The notes below the pieces were generated by a model. That model had not been told where the DNA came from. It did no database searches and saw nothing but the letters and a program-made list of their open reading frames with translations. This document shows positions 3,455 to 3,672 of a DNA stretch of 64,000 nucleotides, piece after piece. The first letter of the stretch is position 1. Each line of letters opens with the position of its first letter. Origin of the DNA: Phyllosticta citribraziliensis (Eukaryota); assembly GCF_038025025.1 (NCBI RefSeq), contig NW_027117346.1, positions 992,001 through 1,056,000 on the forward strand, in the 5' to 3' direction. A program made the translations under genes and the position numbers.

Positions 3455-3672
3455 CACAGTGGGTGTCGAAAGAAATGCGACAGACCTCCTGGCAATAAGA
3501 GTGCACTTGGGGAGCATTCATTCGCTACTATAGTCACACTTAGGGAGTATTCATCTGCTACTATAGTCACGCTTAAGGAGCATTCATTTACTACTATAAC
3601 CACACTTGGGGAGCATCCGTTCACTACTGCATCCAGACTCGGGGAGTCTCATTTCTTTCTACACCCACTGTG
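3455..3672. mobile_element. MITE copy 1 (218 bp) with about 27-bp TIRs and an internal 33-bp tandem array
   Basis: Left end CACAGTGGGTGTCGAAAGAAATGCGAC versus reverse complement of right end CACAGTGGGTGTAGAAAGAAATGAGAC (2 mismatches). Related copies at 44173 and 58245. No coding capacity. Confidence 0.88.
3504..3654. repeat. Minisatellite of about 4.5 x 33 bp inside the MITE
   Basis: Units cacttggggagcattcattcgctactatagtca / cacttagggagtattcatctgctactatagtca / cgcttaaggagcattcatttactactataacca / cacttggggagcatccgttcactactgcatcca plus a partial unit. Confidence 0.9.

Follow-up and report, generated by a model that had tools for sequence, protein, structure and literature searches.

The 64-kb stretch of DNA analyzed here (the window) contains a genuine TIR family, a MITE family whose ends read CACAGTG. 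Four copies lie in the window, and the family is present in multiple copies in its genome. We consider it somewhat probable that these elements owe their movement to an enzyme from the CACTA/EnSpm-Mirage-Chapaev-Transib ('CMCT') clade of transposases. Of the members of this clade, one of CMC type has better odds than a true Transib.

Four copies of one MITE family in the window

A 20-nt core sequence from the TIR was used to search the window at a tolerance of three mismatches. It matched at 7 places versus 0.02 expected, a number that was not attained in any of 100 shuffles. Six of the matches are the ends of three full copies, and the seventh, at 11938 on the plus strand, opens a truncated copy, el4 (Table 1). 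An earlier note on this DNA had described the three full copies and their common TIR; all three were recovered at the same positions, while the truncated copy at 11936 had been overlooked. With an nhmmer profile of the arms, the seven arms were found at E values from 2.6e-22 to 4.5e-08, and the nhmmer match covering 11936-12019 of el4 had an E value of 5.7e-20. No further diverged copies were detected when the seven-arm profile was run over the whole window, the two extra matches having E values of only 3 and 5.1. Run over the 64 kb, a general repeat finder returned no dispersed repeats of any other family.

Table 1. Positions of the MITE copies and of the tandem array inside el1
Feature	Coordinates	Strand	Length	Description
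el1	3455-3672	+	218 bp	Full length; 22-nt TIRs at 3455-3476 and 3651-3672
33-bp unit tandem array in el1	3504-3646	+		Period 33; 3.8-4.3 copies; 80-81% matches
el4	11936-12045	+		Left TIR (2 mismatches), subterminal region and two internal units; right TIR absent; right limit approximate (homology fades at ~12030-12045)
el2	44173-44291	-	119 bp	TIRs at 44173-44194 and 44270-44291; orientation set by internal unit
el3	58245-58392	+	148 bp	TIRs at 58245-58266 and 58371-58392

The 22-nt TIR has the consensus CACAGTGGGTGTCGAAAGAAAT. Three of the seven arms are identical to it, namely the left arms of el1 and el3 and the el2 arm ending at 44291. The other four carry one change (right arm of el1), two changes each (el4 and the right arm of el3) and three changes (the el2 arm starting at 44173, all T>C). 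Together, the seven TIRs show 8 substitutions in 154 nt, a divergence of ~5% (four T>C, two A>G, one C>T, and one C>A). Five of the seven end heptamers, including that of el4, read CACAGTG, and the CAC start is kept in six. The exceptions are CACAGCG at 44173 and TACAGTG at the right end of el3, where the outermost C is replaced by T. The earlier note had read the end letters exactly in this way and had counted CACAGTG at four of the six full-copy ends.

The same note had seen in the TACAGTG end a change in the direction expected from RIP. The C>T at CpA is indeed present, but the eight TIR substitutions hold no excess in the RIP direction; most of them are opposite to it (four T>C and two A>G versus a single C>T). 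The window contains no AT-rich degraded tract, its G+C content being 52-61% in every 2-kb bin. Moreover, elements this short fall below the length that RIP is known to require. There is no support for assigning this one transition to RIP.

The elements are polar and noncoding

The inverted pairing of the arms extends a few bases inward of the TIR. Between the arms, the element is asymmetric. A short spacer is followed by one to four tandem 33-bp units in a single orientation, which gives the element a polarity. In addition to the array of el1, one or two of its 33-bp units are found in the other copies, in the same orientation relative to the left arm. The subterminal region beside 44194 is missing from el2. 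The G+C content of the 218-, 119-, and 148-bp copies is 47-52%.

Single strands of these three copies fold as TIR hairpins, with z scores from -3.9 to -6.7. The DNA fold of el1 reaches -37.2 kcal/mol, with a z score of -4.7 against mononucleotide shuffles; the z scores of el2 and el3 are -3.9 and -6.7, respectively. None of the copies matched an Rfam family at the gathering score, and the ORFs overlapping the copies gave no match to a Pfam family. Coding capacity is absent from every copy in the window.

Contigs of public runs place the boundary at CACAGTG and reveal further copies

Contigs of four public sequencing runs were aligned to positions 1-20000 of the window at 80% likeness. Run X1 corresponds to the same genome or species, since 69 of its 148 aligned pieces are at least 99% alike. 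It may be the source sample of the window itself, and it is therefore not independent for the locus; it does, however, show the other copies of the genome. The summed contig depth of X1 was 15.1 over 3336-4002 versus roughly 1-6 in most other bins. In 14 contigs, the letter at 3498 differed from that of the window, and X1 holds at least 10-14 further contigs of the family. In 10 contigs, the match began exactly at 3455, the C of CACAGTG, and the parts upstream agreed at only 0.44. The family is thus multicopy in its genome. In the small run X2, two contigs with different upstream sequences began their match at 3454 and 3453. Runs X4 and X5 contributed only low-identity pieces from other organisms.

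The match starts bear on the question of where the element ends. An element with a CAGTGGG start and a TA duplication would put them at 3456 or 3457. Because 10 X1 contigs with unrelated flanks match from 3455, the outer CA/TG is part of the element and not of its target. Furthermore, these outer letters are inverted (CA on the left, TG on the right) and so cannot arise from a 2-bp direct duplication. TA stands directly outside CACAGTG at none of the seven ends, and outside CAGTG at one, the TACAGTG end. Together, these results support the assignment of the outer CA/TG to the element rather than to a TA duplication. They also bear out the earlier note, which had described the flanks as CA/TG instead of TA: the X1 contigs share the CA. 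The note had added that copies mostly flanked by TA would indicate an ordinary mimp-like MITE. As far as the data allow, the copies do not have such flanks.

Empty sites were also considered. No contig joining across el1 or el4 was present among the matches listed for the four runs over 1-20000, where cover is patchy at these places. The joined flanks of the four copies had no second match in the window beyond chance ones of 13-18 nt, and paralogous empty sites were thus not found there.

Two further observations were made on the contigs. Several X1 contigs skip 54-112 nt within el1 (3502-3642) or have 7-37 other letters in place of that length. These skips are low-stringency joints of a metagenome run and as such only hint at other copies with fewer 33-bp units, with which they are consistent. 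A 545-nt X2 contig, aligned to 3260-3481 of the window, comprises the left flank of el1 and its first 27 nt without mismatch, and continues with ~320 nt of different sequence that resembles the right-arm interior of el2 and el3. It is possibly a differing or inverted element in that strain, or an assembly chimera at a repeat.

Outside these runs, a 19-nt TIR core was found at three loci in metagenome contigs, each a single site with neither a second arm nor a CA before the core. These loci look like chance matches or bacterial contexts, and their number is about that expected for a 19-mer by our estimate. Positions 1-70 of one metagenome contig, L001, resemble a sequencing adapter, which would make that public contig partly artifactual. 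Prokaryote genome contigs gave 0 matches to a degenerate 21-nt TIR pattern.

The flanks are GC rich and show no consistent duplication

The 5-bp flanks of the full copies are AGGGC/GGGCC (el1), GCCGA/GCGGT (el2), and GGTGT/TGGCC (el3). They match those given by the earlier note, whose caveat that the duplications are not clean was well founded. We scored flank identity in the three full copies over a grid of four boundary offsets and nine lengths (2-10 bp). At the CACAGTG boundary, a 4-bp exact direct repeat, GGGC, stands on both sides of el1 (4/4), and el2 and el3 score 2/4 and 1/4. At 5 bp, the scores are 3/5, 3/5, and 1/5 for el1, el2, and el3. The totals at this boundary are 2/6 for 2 bp, 4/9 for 3 bp, and 7/12 for 4 bp, while those for 8, 9, and 10 bp (6/24, 4/27, and 6/30) are at chance level. 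The best cell of the grid is 8 bp with the boundary moved in by two bases, where el1 scores 6/8, el2 4/8, and el3 2/8 (12/24 in total). Its binomial p is 0.005, and 8.9% of triples of random window positions equal it. After correction over the grid, no duplication length was significant for the three full copies in the window. With a TIR divergence of only ~5%, a duplication of at least 4 bp should mostly have persisted in el2 and el3, and its absence from both is a puzzle. Rearrangement of the flanks is one possible cause, and a duplication of very small or varying length is another.

At positions -1 to -4 of the seven ends, 23 of 28 letters (82%) are G or C, corresponding to a binomial p of 0.004 at the window GC of 0.56, with the 4-base width picked after the profile had been viewed. 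At positions -6 to -30, the count is 78 of 175 (45%). By hand count, 10 of the 12 nearest letters in three further flanks from X2 contigs are G or C. This flanking patch suggests a short GC-rich target of ~4-5 bp: a sharp GC-rich patch of 4-5 bp on both sides is the expected remnant of a short staggered cut in such a target.

Host and surroundings of the elements

One gene of the window codes for an aldo/keto reductase that shares 95% identity with a protein seen only in a public assembly of sequencing runs. Identity amounts to 79% with the Macrophomina phaseolina protein and to 75-77% with the counterparts in Aplosporella, Diplodia, and Saccharata. These values place the host among the Dothideomycetes; of the named genomes, those of Botryosphaeriales are the nearest. 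With its nearest named proteins (Botryosphaeriales) at 79% identity, the host lineage is a poorly sampled one.

The window is an ordinary, gene-dense region with genes for a hydrolase, a reductase, a GMC oxidoreductase, an aldehyde dehydrogenase, a P450, an amidase, and a zinc-cluster factor. All four MITE copies are intergenic. Three long ORFs without Pfam match (45185-49153 on the minus strand, 12771-14987 on the minus strand, and 55899-58016 on the plus strand) have a MITE copy 0.2-0.9 kb past the stop codon. The first of them is a single-exon ORF of 1,322 aa, rich in Ser, Pro, Gly, and Thr, whose product looks largely disordered.

Several other features of the window were recorded. Two tRNA genes of ~108-110 nt, presumably intron containing, were detected with RF00005 at 19776-19883 (plus strand; 51.3 bits) and 63145-63254 (minus strand; 46.2 bits); neither was found by ARAGORN in default mode. 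The tRNA gene at 19776-19883 explains a contig depth peak and loose contig ends at 19783 and 19813. A solitary full-length 5S rRNA gene (RF00001; 72.3 bits) lies among protein-coding genes at 30994-31113 on the plus strand. Pentanucleotide microsatellites of the GGGAT type are located at 37055-37095 and 50074-50125, in opposite orientation and 13 kb apart. A direct repeat of 98 nt (4676-4773 and 4893-4990; 86% identity; spacing, 217 nt) lies partly inside the ORF at 4043-4867 on the minus strand and may be a repeated coding module.

Which transposase moved the elements?

No transposase gene was detected in the window; when 199 stop-to-stop ORFs (at least 110 aa each) were compared with Pfam, not one matched a transposase family. 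Excision and reinsertion of the copies would be carried out by a DDE transposase whose gene lies at another place in the genome. This enzyme would bind the TIR, possibly with the 33-bp units as additional binding sites, and would insert the element at short GC-rich targets, ~4-5 bp in length.

From the CAC...GTG ends, the short GC-rich target, and the internal repeated units, which make a good fit to the CMCT clade and a poor one to Tc1/mariner, hAT, MULE, and PIF, we infer that this enzyme probably belongs to the former. As described by Kojima in 2025 (PMC12730594), the clade groups EnSpm, Mirage, Chapaev, Transib, Plavaka, and others; its members mostly have CA..TG ends and 2-5 bp duplications, and fungal EnSpm elements have CAC..GTG ends and 3-bp duplications. 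C(2)C and H(3-4)H motifs are given there as traits of the DDE transposases of CMC elements. For Chapaev, invariable 5'-CAC...GTG-3' termini and duplications of 3-4 bp are reported (PMC4079192). A survey of fungi records CMC elements as present, with their expansion mostly in Basidiomycota and Mucoromycota, and credits Dothideomycetes with few DNA transposons (PMC5751038). Points against our reading are this distribution, the lack of a transposase in the window, a terminus that is CACAG and not CACTA, and a duplication length that is inconsistent across the three full copies. According to a preprint, the length of the duplication and the terminal letters vary even among close relatives of Transib (bioRxiv 10.64898/2026.08.26.747230). 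With such lability within Transib, the ends alone cannot fix the superfamily.

In literature searches by TIR strings and by CACAGTG, no printed description of the family stood among the papers listed; those with TIR strings look like biomedical work on other subjects, and one on Fusarium onion basal rot, retrieved with CACAGTG, seems irrelevant. Termini closer to those of the family may be tabulated in the supplements to PMC12730594, PMC4079192, and the 2026 preprint. A CMC-type partner would add a MITE family to a group little documented in Ascomycota, an outcome that would be useful for annotation and not surprising.

The strongest competitor, which we regard as rather unlikely, is another or undescribed superfamily in which the CAC...GTG ends are coincidental, for instance, a MULE or a PIF/Harbinger-ISL2EU relative whose duplications span 0-4 bp. 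It gains from the fact that no duplication length is supported. Elements related to PIF/Harbinger (PHIS) are reported with duplications from 0 to 4 bp (PMC10045372), and PIF/Harbinger and MULE elements are listed as ubiquitous in fungi (PMC5751038). In addition, the Repbase practice as given in PMC4455052 is to class nonautonomous elements only if both the length of the duplication and the 11 outermost letters are those of a known element. Against this reading stand flanks that are not TWA or TA, 8- to 10-bp flanks at chance level at the CACAGTG boundary, and the ready explanation that the CMCT clade offers for the ends.

A true Transib (RAG1-like) transposon is an improbable source of the family; in that case, CACAGTG would be homologous to the RSS heptamer. 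The earlier note had favored such an origin in view of the heptamer and of flanks that read CA/TG and not TA. CACAGTG is in fact identical to the RSS consensus, with CAC kept in six of the seven ends, and the GC-rich flanks over 4-5 bp resemble the GC-rich targets preferred by Transib and RAG (PMC1131882). However, the universally conserved part of the heptamer is given there as CAC only, and CAC...GTG ends are also described for Chapaev (PMC4079192) and fungal EnSpm (PMC12730594). Identity to the RSS heptamer is therefore weak evidence by itself, as only CAC is diagnostic and this is common to the whole CMCT clade.

The inner part of the arm was compared with the Transib nonamer. The 38-bp TIR of Transib consists of the heptamer CACAATG, a 23-bp spacer, and an A-rich nonamer, and the duplications are of 5 bp (PMC1131882). 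In our family, positions 15-23 of all seven arms form an A-rich block that matches this nonamer at 6-7 of 9 positions, but the block lies 7 bp from the heptamer. At the Transib spacing of 23, the match drops to 0-3 of 9, and at 12, the other RSS spacing, it is 2-6 of 9; the earlier note had rightly remarked on the missing nonamer at 12/23. The likeness of the block to the nonamer is suggestive, but it stands at the wrong spacing. A-rich stretches are common in TIRs. As to the 5-bp duplication, the scores of 3/5, 3/5, and 1/5 speak against it, though weakly, as only three old copies were available. Thus, the heptamer is not specific, the duplication and the nonamer fail, and of the features invoked for a Transib origin, the GC-rich target alone fits.

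Transib is also named as the single superfamily missing from fungi in the survey, which used the RAG1 Pfam domain (PMC5751038), and an earlier paper places it, within fungi, only in soybean rust (PMC1131882). We consequently give little credence to a Dothideomycete offspring of Transib/RAG1-like elements with an RSS-identical heptamer, an A-rich block at 7-bp spacing, and GC-rich targets. A Transib-like partner would overturn the reported absence from fungi, put Transib in Ascomycota, and open RAG-like transposition to study in a fungus.

A hAT-type MITE that starts with CAGTG and makes 8-bp duplications, with CA/TG stemming from a preferred target TGnnnnCA, likewise has a small chance of being correct. 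This reading corresponds to the best cell of the grid (12/24; p of 0.005), and the CAG start would comply with what is stated for hAT ends, in which G invariably stands third (PMC1131882). That score, however, is the one equaled by 8.9% of random triples. Within the supposed duplication, the inner letters are CA/TG in six of the seven ends, and the outer letters, for which a direct repeat demands equality, fit TG...CA in only two; the 10 further copies in X1 have the same CA. The preference of hAT for AT-rich sites (PMC1131882) is at odds with the GC-rich flanks. At the CACAGTG boundary, the third letter is C, and the 8-bp flanks score the 6/24 given above.

Very unlikely, finally, is a Tc1/mariner MITE of the impala/mimp kind with a CAGTGGG start and a TA duplication: the TIR pattern of mimp does begin with this same heptamer (PMC6131394), and Tc1/mariner is reported as by far the commonest DNA transposon group in fungi (PMC5751038), but the X1 match starts, the inverted CA/TG, the GC-rich flanks, and the lack of TA, which adjoins CAGTG only once and through a single C>T change, all speak against it, and the pattern CAGTGGG.GCAA[TA]AA has no exact match in the window and, with two mismatches, hits one of the seven family ends and one unrelated site versus 0.97 expected.

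Comparison with known systems

In being 119-218 bp long, noncoding, bounded by 22-nt TIRs, and present in four copies in the window, the elements have generic MITE traits. They share with mimp/impala of Fusarium the size class, the lack of coding capacity, the CAGTGGG core in the TIR, and the position near genes. They differ from these in a boundary that lies two letters further out (CA/TG), in flanks without TA, and in the rest of the TIR, which is unlike.

With Transib and the RSS, the family has in common the RSS-identical heptamer, the GC-rich insertion sites, and an A-rich second block in the TIR. In contrast, this second block stands at 23 or 12 bp in those systems and at 7 bp here, and the 5-bp duplication of Transib is not seen.

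The likeness to CMC/CMCT elements, which we prefer as the source of the transposase, comprises the 5'-CAC...GTG-3' ends (six of seven here), the subterminal or internal repeated units, the existence of fungal members, and a possible short duplication (4 bp in el1). Differences are the CACTA terminus, in place of which CACAG is found here; a 2-4 bp duplication in only one of the three full copies; the reported occurrence mainly outside Ascomycota; and the lack of a Transposase_21-type partner in this window. Active CMC elements, one of them with CACTG ends, are described for Cryptococcus in a preprint (bioRxiv 10.1101/2025.05.19.654958). CNIRT6 of Cryptococcus neoformans, a CACTA superfamily element that we liken to our family by description and not by sequence, is autonomous, comes from a basidiomycete, and has other terminal letters beyond CAC, but it resembles the present family in being fungal, with a distal CACTG motif and a transposase of the CMC group.
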